Below are positions 1-63,298 of a stretch of 64,000 nucleotides of DNA, piece by piece. The stretch comes from Eledone cirrhosa (taxonomy: Eukaryota): contig OZ024743.1 in the NCBI GenBank assembly GCA_964016885.1, positions 287,928,001-287,992,000 of the forward strand. Direction: 5' to 3'. The translations under genes and the position numbers were made by a program. The notes beneath the pieces were generated by a model. It did not search any database, was not told the origin of the DNA, and saw only the letters and a list, made by a program, of their open reading frames with translations. How positions within the stretch are numbered: position 1 is the first letter of the stretch; each line of letters opens with the position of its first letter.

Positions 1-640
1 AAGTGACCAGTGAAAAACTCGGTACATCTACATATGTATACGTGTGTGTATTCATATGCATACTAGTATTTCAGTATACATATGTGGATGTACATTTTTA
101 ACTTAATTGTTTAAGCGTCAGTCATACAAAAGTGAGTTACAAACGAAACGAAATTTAATTTCGTTTCGTTATTTGTTTTTATCGTCTCCGTTGAACCGGT
201 ACGTACTCACGCTCTATGCAAATTAGTCTGCCCACTACTAATTTTCATAGAAAAAGCATATAACGATATGTGCTTTTACGATTCTCTAGAGAGGCCGGAA
301 GATAGGTAAATATTGCTGATGAGATGTAACAACATCGAAACTAGTTCAATATTCCTTGCCTGGCTTTCTGGAGAATAGAGGAAAGGTGTTTCCTCAAAAA
401 CCAGTATGACTCTAAAAACCGGTTTGTCTGTGTGTTTACATACAGAATAGCTGGACACTCACAGTAAAGTGACCAGTGAAAAACTCGGTACATCTACATA
501 TGTATACGTGTGTGTATTCATATGCATACTAGTATTTCAGTATACATATGTGGATGTACATTTTTAACTTAATTGTTTAAGCGTCAGTCATACAAAAGTG
601 AGTTACAAACGAAACGAAATTTAATTTCGTTTCGTTATTT

Positions 641-644
<4 letters not shown>
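1..644 (+). mobile_element. Non-coding hammerhead-containing tandem repeat (retrozyme-like), family member A; 466-bp unit, cut by the window start
   Basis: Bases 1-178 recur from 467. One minimal HHR lies at 309-353 and ATGCAAAT at 216-223. The repeat ends in (TA)n at 645 and is homologous to the 50373-53806 array. Confidence 0.8.
309..353 (+). ncRNA. Minimal type I hammerhead ribozyme (GUU triplet, predicted cleavage after 346)
   Basis: aatattg-CTGATGA-gatgt aaca acatc-GAAA-ctag-TT-caatatt: 7-bp stem I, 5-bp stem II, palindromic CUAG loop III. Confidence 0.88.
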
Positions 645-699
<55 letters not shown>

Positions 700-710
<11 letters not shown>

Positions 711-3196
711 GGAAGATGGACATTGTTTGGTGTTCCCAACTTGCATGCTACACCGTTCATCCAATTTTCATGAAACCTCACACATATATAAAACTCAACG
801 CGTAGAGTAGAATAGGCTACTTGAAATTTTCGAAAAATCGATAATCGGGCCTTATGACAGAATGTTTTTCGATTCCAATGAAATTTTATGTGAATTCGAA
901 CACAAGAACTCTTATTTTACATCTGGCGCAATAAAAATAAATTTCATATGCCCATATAAGGACGTGCGTTATTGATTGGACGGCCAGCTGCATGTCTTCC
1001 CAGCTGTCTCAGTAAACGACCGACCATTAAAGAGTTTATCTTTTCATATTCCACCTTATTCAAGTGGAAATACACCTATCTGAAAAGGGAACCAAATTTA
1101 ATGGTGTCTTTTGTGATGCTAAAAGCTTTGAGTAAATTTTCAAACAGTCTTAAATAATCATGCTTTTTGAAAAAAAAAATGACTAAATAATACGTTGACC
1201 AAGTTGTATTGTACACATACAAAGTTGTAAAAAATGTTACTTCCGTACCAATGTTTTCCTTTTTTAAACAAAAGATTCTAAAAAAATTACTTAATTTATA
1301 ATACAGTCTTTTGCACAGGAAGTGAGTAACTTTTCGGGTGTTTAAACGTAAGTTCACCAGGGTTTGTGTCTTCATTATTAGCCCACCTCTAATGGCATTT
1401 TTGTTCTGCTTACGACTAAATGTTATGAGCGTATTTGCAATTAATTGCGCACACGTGCACACCTGCATGCAGATAGACACTGACAGCCAATAAAAAATCG
1501 ATAACTTGCTTATTAAGATATCGGTCAAAAAGAGAGATTGAATGTACTTTAGAACATTTTTTGAATATATTGTTCTTTTTGGCATGATATGTCAGAAATA
1601 TAGCTACTATACACTTTGGTTATTTTTTGTAACTAAAAAACGGTTCCTTTTGGGTGGATACTTAACGAGAAAAATCCTAGGGTTTTGGACAAGTTTGTTT
1701 CAGGCGCTGTATAGACGCCTATTTTGCCACACCTTGGTCATGAATTCGTATTCTTTTCCAATAGATATTTTCCGCTCTATAAGGCTCACCAGGATATAAG
1801 GCGTATCATTTAAAATCAGGTCCGCGCAACGGCGTGTAAGGCCAACCAGGAAAATGCTATCTTCTTTACTTTTAGTCTAGATCTATTACTTCTGTTAGAG
1901 CCGTGATTAATTTCCATTGTATTATTTATACATAAGGCTCACCGGAGTATAAAGCGCAGAGCTGTTTTTTGATTAAATTTAATTATTTTAAGTGCAATTT
2001 ATAGACCGGAAAATTCGGTAAGTTATTGTAATTATATTTCCAAAACCTTCCCATTCACCAGTAACCATGCTAACGAATCTGGTGTCATCTCTCTCTGTAT
2101 TTAATCACCTCTCTTTAACCTAACAGCTTCGTTACACGTCGTTATGCCCACACGGACACGTTCAAGACTTACCTCCAAAAAAGGTACAGCTACTGCTTTG
2201 AGACAACGAATTAGGCGTTCTCAGGTATGAGTTCATTCACAATTGATTAATCCTTTATGCAATATTCTCCCTTAATGTTAGCAAGTACTGCGTTTATCCT
2301 AACTGTGACCACTTTTAAGCAACTACAACATTCTAATCGTAGTTATATTAAATTTATTGTCTTACCTTGATTCCCTTTTGTTCATGTTAGACTTTTCTCA
2401 TTTACTATTGACACTGCCATTGGCTTAGCTAACCAGTAGAATTAATTAATTTTCTCTAGGAAACACCTGCTGAGCGCGAATCTCGACTCGCTGATAGACG
2501 TCTTTCCCGGCTGGTTGAGTTACCAACATCACGTACGACAAGGCTTGCTGATGTTCGCCTTCGTCGCCAACAAGCGCTGACGGAGGAATCACCAACATCC
2601 CGTCAGACGAGGCTTGAGGCTGTGGCAAAGGGCAATAACCCTAGATACAATTTTGATCAACTTTTTTTCACCTATAGCAAATTTACCGGGACAGGTTTTT
2701 AGCTACTCAAATCTACTTCAGAGATCACGCATTGATGTAAAAAATCAATAAAACTGAAGCGGGCTCGACTTTGCGCAAAAAAATAAGGCAAAGTTACACA
2801 TGGGAAAAAATTTTACAGGAACGTCCTATATTCTTGAAAGCTGTCACAAAAGACTCGCCATTATGCCGCGGTTAAGATAAAGGCCCTTTTAATTCTTCTT
2901 CTGCACATGTGAGCGCAAAAATTGTAAAAAAAAAAACCCCTGAAAGTAATCGACATTTTCACCCTGCTTTAAATTAACTGAACATTCAATATCAAGCAAT
3001 TTTGACTTCCGTCAGTCGTGCAGAGAACAATTTCAACGATACACCGTGTAACTACAATTAATAAATTACACACCTGTGTCTACTAACCTATTTTTTTTCA
3101 TTGAAGTTCGAAGTTTTGAACCTGTGATGCGCGGGAAGTAACTTTCACACATTCTAACAGACCAAAGGTCGACTTACGCCCGGGTACTTCTGCTAG
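700..3196 (+). mobile_element. Non-autonomous Helitron-like remnant
   Basis: The 3' end reads ...cgcccgggtacttctgCTAG|t, a GC-rich subterminal stretch followed by CTAG before T. The 5' end TATATATAAAGGGAAG emerges from (TA)n. That both ends belong to one element is inferred. Confidence 0.45.
1765..2020. mobile_element. pogo/Tigger-like DNA transposon end
   Basis: Repeated ATAAGGCTCACC(A/G)GA..TATAA subterminal motifs and a terminal ttatagaccggaaaattcggTA (reverse complement TACCGAATTTTCCGGTCTATAA). Confidence 0.4.
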
Positions 3197-13017: not shown

Positions 13018-13019
<2 letters not shown>

Positions 13020-13281
13020 TCGTTCCTGTGTCAGTGTTGAACAAAAAGGTGACGTGGTTGCCTTAACACCGTATGGCATAAGTTCAGGCTGTTCAGTTTG
13101 TTTACAAACGAACAAAGCGGCGTTATAATAAGCGTCCGCTAAACTGATGCGTGCATATATGTATGTGTACCTGTATGTATATATATGTGTATATGTATAT
13201 ATATATATATATATATATGTACGTTATTCCGGGTTGAATCGGAGGTAACCACAGTAAGTAAGGTACTCAATACATAGCAGA

Positions 13282-13330
<49 letters not shown>

Positions 13331-13384
13331 TGCTACTGTACGTCCTGTATACATATATGTATGTACGTATACATACATACTTAC

Positions 13385-13388
<4 letters not shown>
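13018..13388 (+). mobile_element. Partial monomer of the retrozyme-like family (member C), starting at the position homologous to the HHR cleavage site; duplicate at 15047-15335
   Basis: cttcgttcctgtgtcagtgttgaacaaaa aligns to cagcgttcctttgtcagtgttgaacaaaa (50387), with the same hairpins. Embedded in (TA)n. Confidence 0.78.
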
Positions 13389-13415
<27 letters not shown>

Positions 13416-13754: not shown

Positions 13755-15690
<1,936 letters not shown>

Positions 15691-21880: not shown

Positions 21881-21984
21881 TCAATAGAAATTACCCGATA
21901 TCAACCTTCGTATTTTTATTATCAAATGTTTATCGTATGTTCGACAAAATTGCTTCTTCTACACCTCTTGTCTCTCCTACCACT

Positions 21985-24900
21985 TCCACCACACCAAAAC
22001 CACCACCTCAACACTACCACACCACCAAAACCACCAGCCCAGCACTACCACGTCACCAAAACCAGCACCCCAGTACTACAACGCCACCAAAACCACCACC
22101 ACAACACTGTAAAGCCAGCAAATCCACCAGCCCAGCACTGCCACGCCACCAAAACCACCACCCCAGCACTACCACGCCACCAAAACCATCACACCAGCAC
22201 TACCACACCACCAAAACCACCACCCCAGCACTAGCACACCACCAAAACCACCACCCCAGCACTGCAACGCTACCAAAACCACCACCCCAGCACTGCCACG
22301 CCACGCCACCAAAACCTCAGCACTACCACGCCACCAAAACCAAAACCTCAGCACTACCACACCACCAAAACCACCATCCCAGCACTACCACGCCACCAAA
22401 ACCACCATCCCAACACTACCACGCCACCAAAGCCACCACCCCAACACTGCCATGCCACCAAAACCACCACCCCATCATTGCAACGCCACCAAAACCACCA
22501 CCCCAACACTGCCCTGCCACCAAAACCACGACCTCAGCACTACCACGCCACCAAAACCACCAAGCCAGCACAACCACGCCTCCAAAACCATCACCCAAAC
22601 ACTACCACTCCACCAAAACCACCACCCCACCACTGCCATGCCACCAAAACCACCACCCCAACAAAACCACGCCACCAAAACCACCACCCCAACTCGACCG
22701 CGCCACTAAAACCACTACCCCAACACTGCCACGCCACCAAAACCACCACCCCAACACTACCACGCCACCAAAACCACCACCCCAGCGCTACCACGCCACC
22801 AGAACCACCATCTCAGCGCTACCACGCCACCAAAACCACCACCCCAGCGCTACCACGCCACCAAAACAACCACCCCAGCACTACCACGCCACCAAAACCA
22901 CCACCCGAGCACTGCAACGCCACCAAAACCACCAACCCAGCACAACCACGCCACCAAAACCATCACCCAAACACTACCACTCCACCAAAACCACCACCCC
23001 ACCACTGCCATGCCACCAAAACCACCCCCCAACAAAACCACGCCACCAAAACCACCACCTCAGCACTACCACGCCACCAAAACCACCACCCCAAAACTAC
23101 CACGCCACCAAAACCACCACCCCAGCACTACCACGCCACTAAAACCACCACCCCAACACTGCCACGCCACCAAAACCACCACCCCAACTCGACCGCGCCA
23201 CTAAAACCACCACCCCAACTCGACCGCGCCACTAAAACCACCACCCCAACACTGCCACGCCACCAAAACCACCACCCCAACACTACCACGCCACCAAAAC
23301 CACCACCTCAGCACTACCACGCCACCAAAACCACCACCCCAGCACTACCACGCAACCAAAACCACCACCCCAGCATTACAACGCCACCAAAACCACCACC
23401 TCAGCACTACCACGCCACCAAAACCACCACCCCAGCACTACCACACCACCAAAACCACCACCCCAACACTGCCATGCCACCAAAACCACCACCCCAACAC
23501 TGCCCTGCCACCAAAACCACCACCCCAGCACCGCAACGCCACCAAAACTACCACCCCAGCACTGCAACGCCACCAAAACCCCCACCCCAGCACTACCACG
23601 CCATCAAAACCACCACCCCAGCACTGCAACGCCACCAAAACCACCACCCCAGCACTACCACACCATCAAAACCACCACCCCAGCACTGCAACGCCACCAA
23701 AACCACCACCTCAACACTACCACACCACCAAAACCACCACCCCCAGCACTACCACGCCACCAAAACGACCACCCCAGCACTACCACACCACCAAAACACC
23801 ATCCCAACACTACCACGCCACCAAAACCACCACCCCAGCACTACCACACCACCAAAACCACCACCCCAGCACTACCACACCACCAAAACCACCACCCCAA
23901 CACTACCACGCCACCAAAACCACCACCCCCAGCACTACCTCACCACGAAAACCACCACCCCAGCACTACCACGCCACCAAAACCACTACCCTAGCACTAC
24001 CACACCACCAAAACCACCACCCCAGCACTACCACACCACCAAAACCACCACCCCAGCACTACCACACCACCAAAACCACCACCCCAGCACTACCACACCA
24101 CCAAAACCACCACCCCAGCACTACCACGCCACCAAAACCACCACCCCAGCACTACCACACCACCAAAACCACCACCCTAACACTACCACACCACCAAAAC
24201 CACCACCCCAGCACTACCACGCCACCAAAACCACCATCCCAGCACTACCACACCACCAAAACCACCACCCCAGCACTACCACACCACCAAAACCACCACC
24301 CCAGCACTACCACGCCACCAAAACCACCACCCCAGCACTACCATAACACCAAAACCACCACCCCAGCACTACCACGCCACCAAAACCACCACCCCAGCAC
24401 TACCACACCACCAAAACCACCACACCAGCACTACCACACCACCAAAACCACCACCCCAGCACTACCACGCCACCAAACCACCACCCCAGCACTACCACAC
24501 CACCAAAACCACCACCCCAGCACTACCACGCCACCAAAACCACCACCCCAGCACTACCACACCACCAAAACCACCACCCGAGCACTACCACGCCACCAAA
24601 ACCACCACCCCAGCACTACCACACCACCAAAACCACCACCCCAGCACTACCACACCACCAAAACCACCACCCCAGCACTACCACGCCACCAAAACCACCA
24701 CCCCAGCACTACCACACCACCAAAACCACTACCCTAGCACTACCACACCACCAAAACCACCACCCCAGCACTACCACACCACCAAAACCACCACCCCAGC
24801 ACTACCACACCACCAAAACCACCACCCCAGCACTACCACACCACCAAAACCACCACCCCAGCACTACCACGCCACCAAAACCACCACCCCAGCACTACCA

Positions 24901-25650
24901 CACCACCAAAACCACCACCCTAACACTACCACACCACCAAAACCACCACCCCAGCACTACCACACCACCAAAACCACCACCCCAGCACTACCACACCACC
25001 AAAACCACCACCCCAGCACTACCACGCCACCAAAACCACCACCCCAGCACTACCACACCACCAAAACCACTACCCTAGCACTACCACACCACCAAAACCA
25101 CCAACCCAGCACTACCACACCACCAAAACCACCACCCCAGCACTACCACACCACCAAAACCACCACCCCAGCACTACCACGCCACCAAAACCACCACCCC
25201 AGCACTACCACGCCACCAATACCACCACCCCAGCACTACCACACCACCAAAACCACCACCCCAGCACTACCACGCCACCAAAACCACCACCCCAGCACTA
25301 CCACACCGCCAAAACCACCACCCCAGCACTACCACACCGCCAAAACCACCACCCCAGCACTACCACACCACCAATACCACCACCCCAGCACTACCACACC
25401 ACCAAAACCACCACCCCAGCACTACCACGCCACCAAAACCACCACCCCAGCACTACCACACCGCCAAAACCACCACCCCAGCACTACCACACCGCCCAAA
25501 CCACCACCCCAGCACTACCACACCATCAAAACCACCACCCCAGCACTACCACACCGCCAAAACCACCACCCCAGCACTACCACACCGCCCAAACCACCAC
25601 CCCAGCACTACCACACCATCAAAACCACCACCCCAGCACTACAACGCCAC
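21985..25650. repeat. 31-bp minisatellite (CACCAAAACCACCACCCCAGCACTACCAC[G/A]C)n
   Basis: Direct tandem periodicity; degenerate at left, homogeneous at right. Confidence 0.93.
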
Positions 25651-32639: not shown

Positions 32640-35600
32640 CACCGCCACTACCACCACCATCACACTCCTGCCACTACTACCTCCCACCACCATCACACTC
32701 TTGCCACTACTACCCACTACCACCACCATCACACTCCTGACACTACTACCCACTACCACCACCATCACACTCCTGCCACTACTACCCACTACCACCACCA
32801 TCACACTCCTGCCACTACTACCTCCCACCACCATCATCACACTCCTGCCACTACTACCCACTACACCACCATCACACTCCTGCCACTACTACCCACTACC
32901 ACCACCATCACACTCTTTCCACTACTACCCACTACCACCACCATCACACTCCTGCCACTACTACCTCCCACCACCATCATCACACTCCTGCCACTACTAC
33001 CCACTACACCACCATCACACTCCTGCCACTACTACCCACTACCATCACCATCACACTCCTGCCACTACTACCTCCCACCACCACCATCACACTCCTGCCA
33101 CTACTACCCACTACCACCACCATCACCCTCCTGCCACTACTACCCACTACCACCACCATCACACTCCTGCCACTACTACCCACTATTACACTCCTTCCAC
33201 TACTACCCACTACCACCACCATCACACTCCTGCCACTACTACCCACTACCACCACTATCACACTCCTGCCACTACTACCCACTACCACCACCATCACACT
33301 CCTGCCACTACTACCCACTACCACCACCATCACACTCCTGCCACTACTACCCACTACCACCACCATTACACTCCTTCCACTACTACCCACTACCACCACC
33401 ATCACACTCCTGCCACTATTACCCACTACCACCACCATCACACTCCTGCCACTACTACCTCCCACCACCATCACACTCCTTCCACTACTACCCACTACCA
33501 CCACCATCACACTCCTGCCACTACTACCCACTACCACCACCATCACACTCCTGCCACTACTACCTCCCACCACCATCATCACACTCCTGCCACTACTACC
33601 CACTACCACCACCATCACACTCCTTCCACTACTACCCACTACCCCCACCATCACACTCCTGCCACTACTACCCCCACCATCACACTCCTGCCACTACTAC
33701 CCACTATTACACTCCTTCCACTACTACCCACTACCACCACCATCACACTCCTGCCACTACTACCCACTACCACCACTATCACACTCCTGCCACTACTACC
33801 CACTACCACCACCATCACACTCCTGCCACTACTACCCACTACCACCACCATCACACTCCTGCCACTACTACCCACTACCACCACCATTACACTCCTTCCA
33901 CTACTACCCACTACCACCACCATCACACTCCTGCCACTATTACCCACTACCACCACCATCACACTCCTGCCACTACTACCTCCCACCACCATCACACTCC
34001 TTCCACTACTACCCACTACCACCACCATCACACTCCTGCCACTACTACCCACTACCACCACCATCACACTCCTGCCACTACTACCTCCCACCACCATCAT
34101 CACACTCCTGCCACTACTACCCACTACCACCACCATCACACTCCTTCCACTACTACCCACTACCCCCACCATCACACTCCTGCCACTACTACCCCCACCA
34201 TCACACTCCTGCCACTACTACCCACTACCACCACTATCACACTCCTTCCACTACTACCCACTACCACCACCATCACACTCCTGCCACTACTACCCACTAC
34301 CACCACCATTACACTCCTTCCACTACTACCCACTGCCACCACCATCACACTCCTGCCACTACTACCCACTACCACCACCATCACACTCCTTCCACTACTA
34401 CTCACTACCACCACCATCACACTCCTGCCACTACTACCCACTACCACCACCATCACACTCCTGCCACTACTACCCACTACCACCACTATCACACTCCTGC
34501 CACTACTACCCACTACCACCACCATCAGACTCCTGCCACTACTACCCACTACCACGACCATCACACTCCTGCCACTACTACCTCCCACCACCATCACACT
34601 CCTTCCACTACTACCCACTACCACCACCATCACACTCCTGCCACTACTACCCACTACCACCACCATCACACTCCTTCCACTACTACCCACTACCACCACC
34701 ATCACACTCCTGCCACTACTACCCACTACCACCACCATTACACTCCTTCCACTACTACCCACTACCACCACCATCACACTCCTTCCACTACTACCCACTA
34801 CCACCACCATCACACTCCTGCCACTATTACCCACTACCACCACCATCACACTCCTGTCACTACTACCTCCCACCACCATCAGACTCCTTCCACTACTACC
34901 CACTACCACCACCATCACACTCCTGCCACTACTACCCACTACCACCACCATCACACTCGTGCCACTACTACCTCCCACCACCATCATCACACTCCTGCCA
35001 CTACTACCCACTACCACCACCATCACACTCCTTCCACTACTACCCACTACCACCACCATCACACTCCTGCCACTACTACCCACTACCACCACTATCACAC
35101 TCCTTCCACTACTACCCACTACCACCACCATCACACTCCTGCCACTACTACCTCCCACCACCATCATCACACTCCTGCCACTACTACCCACTACCACCAC
35201 CATCACACTCCTGTCACTACTACCTCCCACCACCATCAGACTCCTTCCACTACTACCCACTACCACCACCATCACACTCCTTCCACTACTACCCACTACC
35301 ACCACCATCACACTCCTGCCACTACTACCCACTACCACCACCATCACACTCCTGTCACTACTACCTCCCACCACCATCAGACTCCTTCCACTACTACCCA
35401 CTACCACCACCATCACACTCCTGCCACTACTACCCACTACCACCACCATCACACTCGTGCCACTACTACCTCCCACCACCATCATCACACTCCTTCCACT
35501 ACTACCCACTACCACCACCATCACACTCCTGCCACTACTACCCACTACCACCACCATTACACTCCTTCCACTACTACCCACTACCACCACCATCACACTC

Positions 35601-36110
35601 CTGCCACTACTACCCACTACCACCACCATCACACTCCTGCCACTACTACCCACTACCACCACCATCACACTCCTGCCACTACTACTCACTACCACCACCA
35701 TCACACTCCTGCCACTACTACCCACTACCACCACCATCACACTCCTTCCACTACTACCCACTACCACCACCATCACACTCCTGCCACTACTACTCACTAC
35801 CACCACCATCACACTCCTGCCACTACTACCCACTACCACCAACATCACACTCCTGCCACTACTACCCACTACCACCACCATCACACTCCTGCCACTACTA
35901 CCCACTACCACCACTATCACACTCCTGCCACTACTACCCACTACCACCACCATCACACTCCTGCCACTACTACCCACTACCACCACCATCAAACTCCTGC
36001 CACTACTACCTCCCACCACCATCACACTCCTTCCACTACTACCCACTACCACCACCATCACACTCCTGCCACTACTACCCACTACCACCACCATCACACT
36101 CCTGCCACTA
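32640..36110. repeat. 36-bp minisatellite (CCACTACTACCCACTACCACCACCATCACACTCCTG)n
   Basis: Tandem periodicity; explains the 12-aa-repeat ORFs on both strands. Confidence 0.95.
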
Positions 36111-38844: not shown

Positions 38845-39351
38845 GTGTGTGTGTGTCTTATATGTGTTATTCTAGGTACTATGCTGTTTGATAACGATAA
38901 GGTTCATATACTATCAACTATTGAATATGTTTTCTATATTCAAAGAATCCCTCAGATGGTGGAATTTCTTCCAATATTGATTGTCTTAATTGATTCATTA
39001 ATATTGTTTTTAATTTCCGAAACTGCAATCAGGGAGGCGATTGTATTCCCCTTAATAGATGTTTTGTCATTAGATAAACTATCTTATATTTCTTCATTGT
39101 GTATATGTGAATTTTACCAGTTTTAAACTAATAAGGCCATTAATCAGCAGAATACTCGATACTTGAGATAGTAGAGTGTAAATACATCACAGAGTCGAGT
39201 CCCGATGTCTGATCTCTTGCTGTTACGACAGCAAATTCCAGTCTGGAATTTGCTGTGGAAACTGCAAAATTTCAGCTGTCGGGCTCAGACTCTCTAATAC
39301 ACACATACACACATACACAGCTCTCTCTCCCCCCTCTCTCTGTATATATAA

Positions 39352-39620
39352 TAGGGGAGGGTCATATTGTTATAATATTGCCAGAAATAATAACAGAACA
39401 CACTCACTGTTTGGTTGGTTTTCGCTTCTGTATCTTTTATATCTCCATAGTTAATTTATTTGGCAACCAATGTTTATCATTGATTGACAAGCGGTTAAAA
39501 ATACAGATATAAATATATATATAGTCTATCAAAGTTCTTTCGTCGCACATCTGCAACATCATCAGTGGTACTATTATGTTTCCTCCTCTTGTATTGTAAT
39601 GTAATGTCTACGCCATTTCG
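39352..39620 (-). mobile_element. Solo pLTR of the 61595-63125 Penelope family with degenerate HHR (39521-39574)
   Basis: Homologous to 61605-61885; CTGATGA-t-gttgca gatg tgcgac-GAAA. Confidence 0.72.
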
Positions 39621-50372: not shown

Positions 50373-50944
50373 CAGCGTTCCTTTGTCAGCGTTCCTTTGT
50401 CAGTGTTGAACAAAAGAGCAACGATGGTTGCTAGACACTACGGCTTAATTCGGGATGTTTGTTTACAAACACACCGAGTATTATAATAAATGTTCGGTGA
50501 ATCCATACGTACATATATATATATATGTGTGCATGTATGTATATATATATATACATACTACTGTACGTCTGTATACATATATGTATGTACGTATACATAC
50601 TTATATTTAAGTAACAGCCGTACTTGGAGTGAGAAATAAAATTTCGTTTCATTTTTTCCGTTTATCGTTTTCGGTACGCCCGGTCGATTAACTCACTCGA
50701 TATGCAAATTAGGCTGCTTAGCCGTTAATATGCATAAGGAAAGTATATACTTTCAGACGTTCAACCGTCTGGCAAGAAGGTATACGTTGCTGACGATAGC
50801 TAATAAGCTTGAAACTAGTACAGCGTTCCTTTGTCAGTGTTAAACAAAAGAGCAACGATGGTTGCTAGACACTGAACGGCTTAATTCAGGATGTTTGTTT
50901 ACAAATACACCGAGCATTATAATAAATGTTCGGTGAATCCATAC

Positions 50945-50987
<43 letters not shown>

Positions 50988-51398
50988 CATGTATGTATAT
51001 ATATATACATACTACTGTATGTCTGTATACATATATGTATGTACGTATACATACTTATATTTAAGTAACAGCCGTACTAAGTGTGAGAAATGAAATTTCG
51101 TTTCATTTTTTCCGTTTATCGTTTTCGGTACGCCCGGTCGATTAACTCACTCGATATGCAAATTAGGCTGCTTAGCCGTTAATATGCATAAGGAAAGTAT
51201 ATACTTTCAGACGTTCAACCGTCTGGCAAGAAGGTATACGTTGCTGACGATAGCTAATAAGCTTGAAACTAGTACAGCGTTCCTTTGTCAGTGTTAAACA
51301 AAAGAGCAACGGTGGTTGCTAGACACTGAACGGCTTAATTCAGGATGTTTGTTTACAAATACACCGAGCATTATAATAAATGTTCGGTGAATCCATAC

Positions 51399-51435
<37 letters not shown>

Positions 51436-51846
51436 CATGTATGTATATATATATACATACTACTGTATGTCTGTATACATATATGTATGTACGTATACAT
51501 ACTTATATTTAAGTAACAGCCGTACTAAGTGTGAGAAATGAAATTTCGTTTCATTTTTTCCGTTTATCGTTTTCGGTACGCCCGGTCGATTAACTCACTC
51601 GATATGCAAATTAGGCTGCTTAGCCGTTAATATGCATAAGGAAAGTATATACTTTCAGACGTTCAACCGTCTGGCAAGAAGGTATACGTTGCTGACGATA
51701 GCTAATAAGCTTGAAACTAGTACAGCGTTCCTTTGTCAGTGTTAAACAAAAGAGCAACGGTGGTTGCTAGACACTGAACGGCTTAATTCAGGATGTTTGT
51801 TTACAAATACACCGAGCATTATAATAAATGTTCGGTGAATCCATAC

Positions 51847-51885
<39 letters not shown>

Positions 51886-52296
51886 CATGTATGTATATAT
51901 ATATACATACTACTGTATGTCTGTATACATATATGTATGTACGTATACATACTTATATTTAAGTAACAGCCGTACTAAGTGTGAGAAATGAAATTTCGTT
52001 TCATTTTTTCCGTTTATCGTTTTCGGTACGCCCGGTCGATTAACTCACTCGATATGCAAATTAGGCTGCTTAGCCGTTAATATGCATAAGGAAAGTATAT
52101 ACTTTCAGACGTTCAACCGTCTGGCAAGAAGGTATACGTTGCTGACGATAGCTAATAAGCTTGAAACTAGTACAGCGTTCCTTTGTCAGTGTTAAACAAA
52201 AGAGCAACGATGGTTGCTAGACACTGAACGGCTTAATTCAGGATGTTTGTTTACAAATACACCGAGCATTATAATAAATGTTCGGTGAATCCATAC

Positions 52297-52338
<42 letters not shown>

Positions 52339-52748
52339 ATGTATGTATATATATATACATACTACTGTATGTCTGTATACATATATGTATGTACGTATAC
52401 ATACTTATATTTAAGTAACAGCCGTACTAAGTGTGAGAAATGAAATTTCGTTTCATTTTTTCCGTTTATCGTTTTCGGTACGCCCGGTCGATTAACTCAC
52501 TCGATATGCAAATTAGGCTGCTTAGCCGTTAATATGCATAAGGAAAGTATATACTTTCAGACGTTCAACCGTCTGGCAAGAAGGTATACGTTGCTGACGA
52601 TAGCTAATAAGCTTGAAACTAGTACAGCGTTCCTTTGTCAGTGTTAAACAAAAGAGCAACGGTGGTTGCTAGACACTGAACGGCTTAATTCAGGATGTTT
52701 GTTTACAAATACACCGAGCATTATAATAAATGTTCGGTGAATCCATAC

Positions 52749-52787
<39 letters not shown>

Positions 52788-53642
52788 CATGTATGTATAT
52801 ATATATACATACTACTGTATGTCTGTATACATATATGTATGTACGTATACATACTTATATTTAAGTAACAGCCGTACTAAGTGTGAGAAATGAAATTTCG
52901 TTTCATTTTTTCCGTTTATCGTTTTCGGTACGCCCGGTCGATTAACTCACTCGATATGCAAATTAGGCTGCTTAGCCGTTAATATGCATAAGGAAAGTAT
53001 ATACTTTCAGACGTTCAACCGTCTGGCAAGAAGGTATACGTTGCTGACGATAGCTAATAAGCTTGAAACTAGTACAGCGTTCCTTTGTCAGTGTTAAACA
53101 AAAGAGCAACGGTGGTTGCTAGACACTGAACGGCTTAATTCAGGATGTTTGTTTACAAATACACCGAGCATTATAATAAATGTTCGGTGAATCCATACGT
53201 ACATATATATATATATATATATATATGTGTGCATGTATGTATATATATATACATACTACTGTATGTCTGTATACATATATGTATGTACGTATACATACTT
53301 ATATTTAAGTAACAGCCGTACTAAGTGTGAGAAATGAAATTTCGTTTCATTTTTTCCGTTTATCGTTTTCGGTACGCCCGGTCGATTAACTCACTCGATA
53401 TGCAAATTAGGCTGCTTAGCCGTTAATATGCATAAGGAAAGTATATACTTTCAGACGTTCAACCGTCTGGCAAGAAGGTATACGTTGCTGACGATAGCTA
53501 ATAAGCTTGAAACTAGTACAGCGTTCCTTTGTCAGTGTTAAACAAAAGAGCAACGGTGGTTGCTAGACACTGAACGGCTTAATTCAGGATGTTTGTTTAC
53601 AAATACACCGAGCATTATAATAAATGTTCGGTGAATCCATAC

Positions 53643-53679
<37 letters not shown>

Positions 53680-53806
53680 CATGTATGTATATATATATAC
53701 ATACTACTGTATGTCTGTATACATATATGTATGTACGTATACATACTTATATTTAAGTAACAGCCGTACTAAGTGTGAGAAATGAAATTTCGTTTCATTT
53801 TTTCCG
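50373..53806 (+). mobile_element. Tandem array of a non-coding ~450-bp hammerhead-containing unit (retrozyme-like, member B); ~7.6 units, 7 HHRs
   Basis: Predicted cleavage sites lie after 50820, 51274, 51722, 52172, 52624, 53074 and 53518 (spacing 444-454, varying by internal (TA)n). The array starts at the cleavage-site sequence and ends in (TA)n. Confidence 0.9.
50784..50826 (+). ncRNA. Minimal type I hammerhead (GUA triplet); identical copies start at 51238, 51686, 52136, 52588, 53038, 53482
   Basis: acgttg-CTGACGA-t agct aata agct t-GAAA-ctag-TA-cagcgt. Palindromic CUAG loop III; U.U mismatch at 10.1-11.1. Confidence 0.85.
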
Positions 53807-53824
53807 CTTATATATATATATATA

Positions 53825-55476
53825 ACGAAGGAAGTGTGGTAAAGAACCAGATGGACCATAACGCACCTGGGTACTCAATACTTAGGGTAGTAGAGTGGGT
53901 AATAGGAAAATGTTTAACCCCGACGGCAGAGCTCAAGCCGTTTGGACGGCTATTTCTAGACTAAATTAGAATTTTTAGCGTGGTACTAAATAGCCGAACT
54001 TTTCAAGTGGTAATTCCTTATAGGGGAAGATTGTAGTTGTCAAAAGGATTGGTCAAAATTTTCTTGTAAAGACAATTAAATCTTTCATGGCAGTGGGTGG
54101 GAGGTGGGGTGGCTGAACTTGCCTGTAGAACAATGAGGGAGTGGATTGGGCCGGTGAAGCGTTGAAAGTAAATTCTATACAGCAAATTCTAAAGAGTGTG
54201 TATGAAATTAGGCTAGGTAGAAAGCAGGCGAAAAAGAATTCTGTAGGAATCTGAGAGTTGACGTTATAAAATTAAATGGTTAATAAATTGTGATTAAAAG
54301 ATAATAAATAAAAATGATAAAAAAAATTAAATAGTAAAAAATAATAAAAAATCTCTAGAGTGTAAAGAAGCTGCTATATTTTTAGCTGGTATTGCGTTTT
54401 CGGCCAATGCTATATAGAATTTACTGGGGTGGGGGTACTGAGGCTACAAAAGCACGATGGGTTGCCTCAGAGTAGGCGAAAGAGGAAAAAGGAAAAGGAA
54501 GAGGAGAGGGAGTGGAAGGAAGTGATAAGAAGAGATAAAGGGAAAAAGAAAAGAAGTGCATCTACCTATGTATGCTGGGGTTTCCCCTATCTTGTTCGGC
54601 AAGTGGGGAAAAGAAGGATGTTGCAGCCATTGTCTACCCGCCCGGGTCATGAAGGGGTTTGAGGGCGAGGTAAGTGCTATCGGTGTTTACATGCAGTTAC
54701 AAGTTCGTCTTTTTTGTTTAGGAGTTGGTCCTTCGTAAACAACATTTGTATTGTTTCTTCCGAGCATAATTTACACGGACGGCGTCCTCCCGTGTAGGAG
54801 TTAGCCCTGGACAGTAAGCTCCAAGTAAGATTGTATGTTATGTTATTATCTTGGAGGTCCCAGATGTGACCCGAAAGTGTAGTGGCATGTCGCCGGGCCG
54901 GGTTTCGGAACGTATGTCGGTGTTGGTAGAGCCGGGTGTTAAAGTCACAAGCGGTTAATCCTATATAGGCTTTGTTGGAGTTTTCCGTCCTCACGTTGCA
55001 TTGGTAGATCACGTTACGTCCTCGGCATCTGTTGTTGAGGGGGCACGTAGATCTATCAGGGAAGTTACACCTACTGGTCGGCTCTCCACTAATGTCAGGT
55101 TGTTTCTTCCATAGGAGTTGAGTTTCTTGTTGTTTGAGGAGGCGATGTTTTGTACGAAGTTGGGTGTGGTGCTGTAGGAGAGTTTGATAATGTTTTTGTT
55201 GATTATATTGTGGTAGCAGTGTTGTGGTGGGAAGTGTTTTTCGAGCAGCCTAAAGAAGATTTTCCCGATAGGTGTTGCCACCTCGGCATTGTGGGGAGGG
55301 TTGAACCACATAACTTGGCGTGAGCAGCGACGTCGCCTGCTGGTTCCGCTACGGGAAACTGGATAAAAGGAGATTTCCTCCCGAAAGCCGCTTTGCTTGA
55401 GGGCCTGGTTGTAATAAGGCGCATGTTCATCGAATATCTGTTAATTAGCGGACAAACGAGATATGCGGAGGGAGAT

Positions 55477-61594: not shown

Positions 61595-61599
<5 letters not shown>

Positions 61600-63125
61600 A
61601 TACTTGGGGAGGGTCATATTTGTGTAATATTGCAAGAATCAATAACAGAACACACTCACTGTTTGGTTGGTTTTCGCTTCTCGCTTCTGTGTCTTTTATA
61701 TCGGTAATCTAACTTACTCGGTCCTCAATGTTGCCATTGACTGACCGACGGTCAAAAATAATACAGATACAATATAGACACAGACACATATATATAGTTT
61801 ATCATAAATCTTTCGTTGCACATCTGCAACATCGTCAGTGGTGCTATCTTTTCCTCCTGTTGTATTGTATGTCTACGCCATTTTTATTCAGTCTGTCTAT
61901 ATATTTATTTATTTATTTGCTTGTTTGTTTATTTTATTTTGTCTTCTTTGCGCATGCGTTTGCGTGTGTGTATAGTGTTTTGTTTGCTGTGTGATGGGTG
62001 ACTAGAGTGTGTTTATGTGCTTTTTGTTATTGTGCTTGTGTATGTATTTATTTATTTATTTATTTATTTATTTATTTTATTTACTTATTTATACTTCTCT
62101 TAGGTCAATGTTGTTTGTTTGGGTGTTGTTGTTATTCCATTCATTCTTTCTGTTTAGTCTTGGTCTTCTAATTTCTATTTCACTGGCCTCTCTGATTTGC
62201 CTATCTGCTGGGTCATTTCTATGTTTAGATATTATTCTAATTTCTATGTTGTCTATGTTACCGTCATGTTGTTGTCTAGCATGTTCGTATAGTACTGACC
62301 CGTTTTTTCGTCCTTTTAGTTCCCCCCAGTGTTGGTCTATCCTTTCACCTATGCTACGAGCTGTCTCGCCTATGTATGTTGTTGTCATGTTTCTGCAAGT
62401 ACCCTCTGTACATCTTATGCTATAGACTACGTTTCTAGTTTTACAGTTTATCCGGGGGTTTACCTTACATATGATACATTTCCTATTGGTGCAGTGGGTT
62501 TTCTTAAAAGGGTAGGTTTTGCTAATCAGGGATTTTATGGTGGTTCCTGGCTTTTCTACCACCTTAATTTTTAAGTGGGTCTTTCTCAGGGCCTTTCTAC
62601 ACTGGTTAGCTAATTTCCCTCCAGGGGTAGCGTCCATAAACATGACACTCTGGTATCTCTGGTTGTCGTACCATGAGGTGGCTTTCCCTATCTTATGTCT
62701 AGCCCTATCTAAGCTATTCCATGATTTGCTCCTGTATAATGGGCAAATTCCTTTCATGTCCAGTTCTATGAGGGTCTTATACTTCTCCATGGCTCCTTCG
62801 TATACTCTGACTCTGTCTCTTTGGTTGTAGCCAGTGAACTGCATGCGGTTGATGAAGTGTTGGATGTGTCTTTCCATTTCTGTTGGGTCGCACATGCGGG
62901 ACACATTCTTCATCACTCGTACCAAATCTGCGATCAGAATATTAAACTTAGCACTACTGGACATTGCTGAGTTTTTGAGTATCAGGTATTTGGAGGCCAT
63001 GGGTTTAGCATAGTGTGAGTGGAGAATTTGGGCTCTCTCGTCTATAGTGTTAATCCAGAGTTCTGTGTCTAATACAGGAAGTCTATTGTTAGGGTGTTTG
63101 GAAGGGAAGTCGATAGTTACAGTTA
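61595..63125 (-). mobile_element. 5'-truncated Penelope-like element (RT thumb + GIY-YIG, Nematis/Neptune-like) with pLTR HHR at 61795-61847
   Basis: ORF 62089-63180: LPVLD, HYAKPMAS, C..C..C linker, NVVYSIRC...C..YIGETARS..ER..QH, RQIREA..I..PRLN..NEW. HHR: CTGACGA-t-gttgca gatg tgcaac-GAAA-gatt-TA. Confidence 0.9.
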
Positions 63126-63180
63126 TACAAGTATAACAATATTTGTTTCGACACACGATTTCATATAAAAAACCTCGCAA

Positions 63181-63227
<47 letters not shown>

Positions 63228-63298
63228 TATATGTATATATATATATATTACGAGACCGGGGAATCTACAAATCAAGAGAGTACTCTCTCTCTCTCCCT

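Follow-up and report, generated by a model that had tools for sequence, protein, structure and literature searches.

The window, meaning the whole 64,000-nucleotide stretch of Eledone cirrhosa DNA that was analysed, begins inside an insertion built from a tandemly repeated 466-bp unit, here called family A (Table 1). The period is exact over positions 1-644 (178/178 positions). The 5' edge of the insertion lies ~228-240 bp upstream of the window start, such that ~1.4 units fall in the window, and a second arm, a 13-nt inverted piece, sits on the 5' side of the 1.9-unit arm; (TA)n flanks both ends. The unit has a GC content of 36% and is non-coding, given that its longest coding potential is an antisense ATG frame of 50 aa. 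No tRNA was found in window positions 1-2000.

Relatives of family A lie further along the window. The array at 50-54 kb defines family B, and family C is represented by two copies, at 13 and 15 kb, both of which begin at about the cut site, have no ribozyme core and belong to one duplicated block. The first B unit (50373-50820) is a different B variant, with 12 differences that all fall before unit position 245; it begins at the cut site with a 14-nt repeat, which suggests a template switch to cut linear RNA. A very high-copy, TA-flanked repeat adjoins the B array (53824-53960), and another small element, whose hammerhead-like core is minimal, is present at several loci (L069, L097, L153, L162 and L163 hold one or the other of these two repeats). 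Long CA-rich minisatellites, with units of 31 and 36 bp, occupy 21981-25650 and 32645-36110 and are strongly strand-skewed.

Table 1. Features of the window, with the predicted fold of unit A
Feature	Position	Strand	Remark
In-window part of family A insertion	1-644	+	466-bp tandem unit; 1.9 units in whole insertion
Hairpin H8	213-251	+	contains octamer
Octamer ATGCAAAT	216-223	+	in hairpin H8
Hairpin H9	252-277	+	11 pairs in MFE
Extended stem I rod closing predicted circle	281-305 with 355-376	+	MFE fold
Type I hammerhead	309-353	+	core and three stems; two-sided changes in stems I and II across families
Hammerhead stem I	309-315 with 347-353	+	two-sided change between families
Hammerhead core CUGAUGA	316-322	+	
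Hammerhead stem II	323-336	+	followed by GAAA, 2-bp palindromic stem III and GUU triplet
Hairpin H1	378-395	+	7/7 pairs
Long-range helix P2	404-411 with 586-593	+	8 pairs; spans ~180 nt
Hairpin H2	428-445	+	7/7 pairs
Hairpin H3	451-476	+	8/9 pairs
Long AT-rich hairpin H4	488-559	+	TA microsatellite inside it in B and C; absent in D
Hairpin H5	568-581	+	loop and 3' side contain short 3' ends (573-582)
Short 3' end, putative start of reverse transcription	573-582	+	26/61 arm ends
Hairpin H6	608-636	+	13/13 pairs
Long 3' end, second putative start	~644	+	31/61 arm ends
(TA)n target tract	644-707	none	adjoins 3' end of family A insertion
Family C copy	13019-13389	+	5'-truncated at about the cut site; ends at short site
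Second family C copy	15048-15336	+	within duplicate of the block holding the 13019-13389 copy
Family B array	50373-53811	+	7.7 units of ~450 bp; long-site end in (TA)n
Young Penelope-like element, 5'-truncated copy	61596-63264	-	own hammerhead core near 61838

Ribozyme, fold and superfamily

The earlier note on this DNA had described a 466-bp unit with its own hammerhead ribozyme at 309-353, and this is borne out, with the exact period and with the core and all three stems in place. Cleavage is predicted after 346, at the GUU triplet. The Rfam model Hammerhead_HH9 matches 298-369 (E 2e-6, 33 bits, below its gathering score of 52), and no match in an Rfam scan of the window reaches the gathering score. 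No hammerhead core was found on the minus strand of the A and B units in the window. As a circle, A has a predicted minimum free energy (MFE) of -157.0 kcal/mol (z -9.9, 60 shuffles) and B one of -139.7 kcal/mol (z -8.3, 60 shuffles), and the + strand folds better than the - strand in 9/10 monomers. All the A hairpins that had been named are found where they were placed, by a pairing check or in the MFE fold, and so are all eight B and C hairpin strings that were looked up; their recurrence in the same order also held, in that the B and C counterparts occupy homologous columns of a sequence-only alignment. The earlier note had missed P2, the extended stem I, the two putative starts of reverse transcription and the conserved octamer. 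A candidate pseudoknot, P3, pairs 420-426, a linker after P2, with the complementary 7-nt loop downstream of the long start (192-198, or 658-664 in the next unit). Its letters differ among A, B2, C1, D and E with 4-7 pairs kept; a shuffle test is significant in A only, with the C1 anchor misplaced in that test.

The A unit had been called a strongly diverged member of the family of the 50-54 kb array. The kinship is confirmed, as a homologous superfamily that also takes in the C copies, and the divergence is ~35%, with A-B homology detectable by blastn (68% identity over 217 nt, E 2e-13). Over the aligned columns of the sequence-only alignment, identity to A is 65% for B, 63% for C, 55% for E and 47% for D. 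In the 3.0-Gb genome, the hammerhead pattern common to A and B has 20,145 + 19,077 = 39,222 matches against 1 + 0 for the control, and the B/C motif has 26,860. At least 200 matches to family A are listed, spread over many contigs. The older families D, E and F, which share the architecture, were brought out by a search for cores that have another stem III and are preceded by the octamer 65-95 nt upstream (2,507 matches, control 0). The same stem III with other stem II variants gives 16 matches, nearly all of them mutated A, B or C copies. Unit lengths across the families are 420-540 nt.

The octamer stands ~80-100 nt upstream of the ribozyme core (216-223; L052-L081; L154, L158 and L161). Because D, and part of E and F, were selected by the octamer in the search pattern, its conservation is independent only for A, B, C and the ribozyme-found F. 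Family D contains the octamer module three to four times over and some F copies contain it twice, a hint that it is a promoter element in the DNA. A precedent is newt satellite 2, whose promoter is of the snRNA type with a proximal element common to the host snRNA genes (Coats 1994, via PMC2220036). An snRNA-type promoter was tried and rejected here: A-E contain nothing that consistently matches the sequence upstream of U2, and the full octamer is absent from the 400 nt upstream of five U2 loci. The genome also carries ~40 U2 snRNA genes in tandem with a 2.2-kb period (G000:C3:307.35-307.45 Mb), with no canonical octamer within 400 nt upstream in the copies checked.

Two further observations concern the makeup of single copies. 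At ~1185-1255 of locus L189, B/C-type sequence lies directly 5' of an A arm in the same orientation, a possible chimera between families. A SINE-like element of ~190 bp is repeatedly found in the ATTATT loop of H3 in D and E copies (L081, L099, L100, L101), which suggests that it inserts sequence-specifically into that loop.

Covariation and selection on the + strand

Circularity was avoided by folding A alone and by aligning the families by sequence only. Under the A fold, where both partners are changed, pairing is kept in 14/23 cases in B1, 14/22 in C1, 16/24 in E and 24/38 in D, with permutation p values for kept pairs of 0.0002-0.006. A stricter null, conditional on both partners changing, gives p of 0.085 for B1, 0.029 for C1, 0.025 for E and 0.009 for D, and for further monomers 0.0003 (B2), 0.02 (B3) and 0.05 (C2). 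When B1 is used as the source of the fold, only the comparison to A is significant (p 0.31-1.0 for B2, B3, C1, C2 and E). Across nine real monomers, 30 of 151 pairs are changed on both sides, against 19.5 after shuffling (0/500) and 8-17 in slid controls, neither of which removes relatedness.

Among the individual helices, P2 has two-sided change at 5/8 pairs with 91% of cells paired, and in the extended stem I the positions 360-362 with 296-298 are changed on both sides in B, C, D and E. RNAalifold independently recovers P2, H2, H3, H4, H5 and H8, without stem I and H1, both of which are shifted in its alignment. The compensatory changes reported by the earlier note are thus real in the sense that two-sided changes keep the A-predicted pairs in B-E. 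Covariation is strong in aggregate and modest per comparison, and no single pair is claimed to be significant.

A second line of evidence comes from variation within families. Among 255 units at 43 family A loci, fixed variants, present in every covering unit of an insertion and taken as having passed through the mobile stage, were compared with one-off variants. At paired sites, fixed variants keep rather than break the pair 24 to 11, and one-off variants 12 to 67 (p 3.8e-8). The difference persists for transitions only (22/4 vs 11/20, p 3.5e-4) and outside the ribozyme and stem I (15/7 vs 7/45, p 6.7e-6), and there is no signal when the same variants are scored on the minus-strand fold (p 0.65). 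In B the effect is less pronounced (p 0.03), and in C it falls short of significance (p 0.19); when A>G and T>C, changes that might stem from RNA editing, are excluded, the result in A weakens to p 0.067. The selected object is the + strand RNA, since the keep/break signal is strand-specific and that strand folds better. The + strand fold is therefore under selection along the whole unit, also beyond the ribozyme. The earlier claim of selection on a large viroid-like RNA fold stands as to selection beyond the ribozyme; "viroid-like" holds for the shape alone, given that these are DNA insertions with Penelope-type ends and a hammerhead on one strand only.

On the + strand, G>T occurs five times among the fixed A variants and C>A never, and C>T and A>G are numerous. 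Such a spectrum would be expected of a long-lived RNA that had been damaged or edited, the polarity of the changes being uncertain.

Insertion ends and a candidate helper

Insertion anatomy was scored at 35 A loci, 34 from full-length matches among those listed plus the window insertion. The 3' ends of the arms fall at monomer positions 227-236 (n=26) or 301-303 (n=31) and only rarely elsewhere (n=4), so that 57/61 lie at two sites ~70 nt apart. The 5' ends are scattered. Two arms placed head-to-head, that is, an inverted 5'-truncated partner, are found at 26/35 loci, and 22 of these 26 combine a short with a long end, whereas none pairs two ends of one kind; the window insertion fits this rule. 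Most ends adjoin (TA)n, and target duplications of ~9-13 bp are present at three two-arm loci in other, non-TA AT-rich targets. TA-like matches of 1-3 nt between element and target, which may be fortuitous, are seen at the ends. Families B, C and D also have the two end classes and the bias to microsatellite or AT-rich targets. The short start maps to the H5 loop, and the 3' strand of P2 and H6 are part of the tail between the starts; H5-P2-H6 is therefore the presumed platform on which an enzyme binds and starts.

Penelope-like elements (PLEs) have comparable ends. In a published description, their partner copies are inverted and 5'-truncated, one end bears a tail of 30-40 bp, and insertion is biased to (TA)n (Craig et al., PMC8557442). 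For a Penelope enzyme, the tail was found to be bounded by two internal start sites, cutting and extension take place on each of the two target strands, and cleavage is dispensable for insertion in vitro (Frangieh et al., PMC11167929). The young Penelope-like element in the window belongs to a family with 118 scored copies at 98-100% identity and open frames of up to 1218 aa, and an intact element of 1217 aa is present in the same genome. Atlas neighbours of its protein carry HTH_animal, GIY-YIG and RVT_1; a Pfam scan of the protein returned no match and a PDB search only hits at E 0.07-0.2. Its insertions are also in (TA)n and head-to-head with two ends (+26 vs +69 or +84), and its tail is 43-58 nt, against ~70 nt in A. 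A sequence search of this one autonomous family against A-E found no detectable likeness, and a P2-like helix sought in its tail was ambiguous. Because no detectable sequence is shared with A-E, the element is a candidate helper only. A more diverged Penelope-like 3'-end fragment lies at 39350-39620 (- strand) of the window, with a hammerhead core at 39565.

Template, proposed cycle and known relatives

We consider it probable that these families are non-coding hammerhead non-LTR retrozymes, selected for their fold, whose likely circularised monomer is copied by a PLE enzyme through rolling-circle reverse transcription from both strands of a (TA)n target. In such a cycle, family A would be transcribed to + strand RNA, which would cleave itself at the hammerhead, probably as a dimer because stem III is palindromic and of only 2 bp. 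The cut monomer would be ligated into a circle, and a Penelope-like enzyme would bind the circle and start at H5-P2-H6. Reverse transcription would then run round and round the circle from both nicked strands of the target, with one arm per start site, giving the head-to-head insertion. We infer the transcription, the cleavage, the circle, the platform and the Penelope family that supplies the enzyme. A more specific version, for which we hold the case to be tentative and a little short of even, is that the Penelope enzyme acts as a dimer and primes the two target strands on a single circle produced by the ribozyme, with the two starts set by H5-P2-H6 and recognition by shape only, with no shared sequence.

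The evidence on the template lies in variants shared by the two arms. Of the 24 two-arm loci in which both arms exceed 100 bp, 17 have one or more variants carried by every covering unit of the two arms, and at four of those 17 loci such a variant is private among the 35 loci. At L201 a private variant is present in 16/16 covering units of both arms, and an exact genome-wide search for it returns 9 + 7 matches, all within that insertion; at L187, identical private variants extend across nine units of both arms. Two primers that copy a single monomer circle over and over would give this pattern, and a lost or unassembled homogeneous source array would give it too. It might be that the same retrozyme is inserted by the same twin priming from a long linear read-through of a tandem array, with circles as by-products or absent, an alternative that we regard as unlikely though worth keeping in view. 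The unit-specific variants in both arms at L178 and the periodic patterns at L179, L189 and L190 speak for it; these unit-specific, mixed or periodic higher-order patterns point to multimeric templates or to later DNA expansion. Insertion without cleavage in vitro (PMC11167929) is also in its favour, and source arrays may be missing from a single assembly. It is opposed by the private variants at L187 and L201, by the lack of a source array for the L201 variant, the one tested, and by the maintenance of the ribozyme stems through compensation. By inference, moreover, arrays would become shorter at every generation through 5' truncation unless some step amplified them.

Because 5' ends are not piled at the cut site, the main template is not the linear cut monomer. 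Such a pile-up, hinted at by the B and C copies in the window, was rejected on the genome counts: 77 ends lie at the cut site vs 70 at a control site, or ~60 vs ~52 once copies with indels or mutations (17 and 5) and 13 duplicates had been removed by eye. Only one of the first 100 B/C units listed has its 5' end at the cut site, and no A arm at the 35 loci begins at monomer position 1. This absence fits uncut multimers equally well, and is no proof of cleavage. The contigs X5 (496 nt) and X6 (495 nt), of near-unit length and resembling circles, were likewise set aside; they are ascribed to trace genomic DNA because X4 and X5 contain B pieces together with other genome repeats.

Two other explanations dispense with a retrozyme. 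A satellite or foldback DNA repeat could grow by unequal crossover and keep its hairpins by inverted-repeat repair of DNA, with no selection on RNA; higher-order repeats do occur in older single-arm arrays, and several hairpins are local and AT-rich. The strand asymmetry of the signal largely refutes this scenario; the better folding of the + strand, the covariation of long-range helices, the ends fixed at two sites and the target duplications also speak against it, and it is hardly credible. It is only slightly less improbable that the families are viroid-like replicons that also copy RNA to RNA, with a fold recognized by a host polymerase and genomic copies as side products. The size, the predicted branched circle and the hammerhead would suit such a replicon, as would the fixed variants that resemble RNA-stage changes, mostly C>T and A>G, and an RNA-to-RNA step has been reported for a plant retrozyme (PMC9695139). 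Against it stand the units without a hammerhead core on the minus strand and the nested variants among young loci, which fit successive rounds of genomic insertion. The predicted small, highly paired, branched circle with a hammerhead is also found in Avsunviroidae, which differ in that the present families have a genomic DNA phase with ~40,000 copies and a ribozyme on one strand only.

The favoured reading, a retrozyme copied by a PLE enzyme, places these families among known elements. Metazoan non-LTR retrozymes have been described from coral, mussel, axolotl and newt, the last as satellite 2 (PMC7229834). The families share with them the dispersed tandem non-coding repeats, the type I hammerhead with a short palindromic stem III, the GC content below 50% and target duplications longer than 4 bp (~9-13 bp in A), and B and C have a U-U mismatch at the base of stem II, as in axolotl HHR_Amex2 (PMC7229834). 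With 420-540 nt, the units lie at the top of the 150-450 bp span of those retrozymes or exceed it (PMC7229834). A covariation-tested fold of the whole unit, two fixed starts and twin arms are undescribed in the main text of that paper, whose supplement may differ. Circles have been shown for other animal retrozymes, whereas in the present families they are presumed, and a cycle with circles as templates has been proposed (PMC7229834; also PMC4209133).

Non-autonomous PLEs (10.64898/2026.07.22.740005; Chlamys MRC1, PMC8557442) have the same inverted 5'-truncated partner, tail at one end and (TA)n bias, and the present families also share their genome with an active Penelope-like element. The ~70-nt tail of A exceeds the 30-40 bp described for PLEs (PMC8557442). 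In Xenopus, 24/57 retrozyme families match known transposable elements, nearly all at PLE termini (bioRxiv 10.64898/2026.07.22.740005), in contrast to the absence of homology to the one autonomous family compared here. The Anolis Poseidon PAc has two internal starts that bound a tail, a stem-loop start, an AT-rich target and extension of both strands, but it is autonomous and starts without target homology (PMC11167929), whereas the A ends coincide with the short TA-like target matches.

The retrozyme class is therefore known, and the added value is the evidence on mechanism. A literature search that covered few subscription papers, with Repbase and Dfam outside its scope, found neither an account of this family nor evidence from genomes of rolling-circle copying or a single template. 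In the literature examined, the mobilisation of retrozymes by PLEs and the copying of circles are proposed, not shown. The family is young and abundant enough to expose several steps, namely the starts, their paired use, a single-template signature, a selected fold around the starts and an intact candidate enzyme. Two questions are thereby made testable in vitro: whether circles serve as the template for retrotransposition, and how the head-to-head "tail" insertions of Penelope elements form. If the more specific version, with a dimeric enzyme and recognition by shape only, is true, the superfamily would be a genomic record of rolling-circle retrotransposition of circular RNA.
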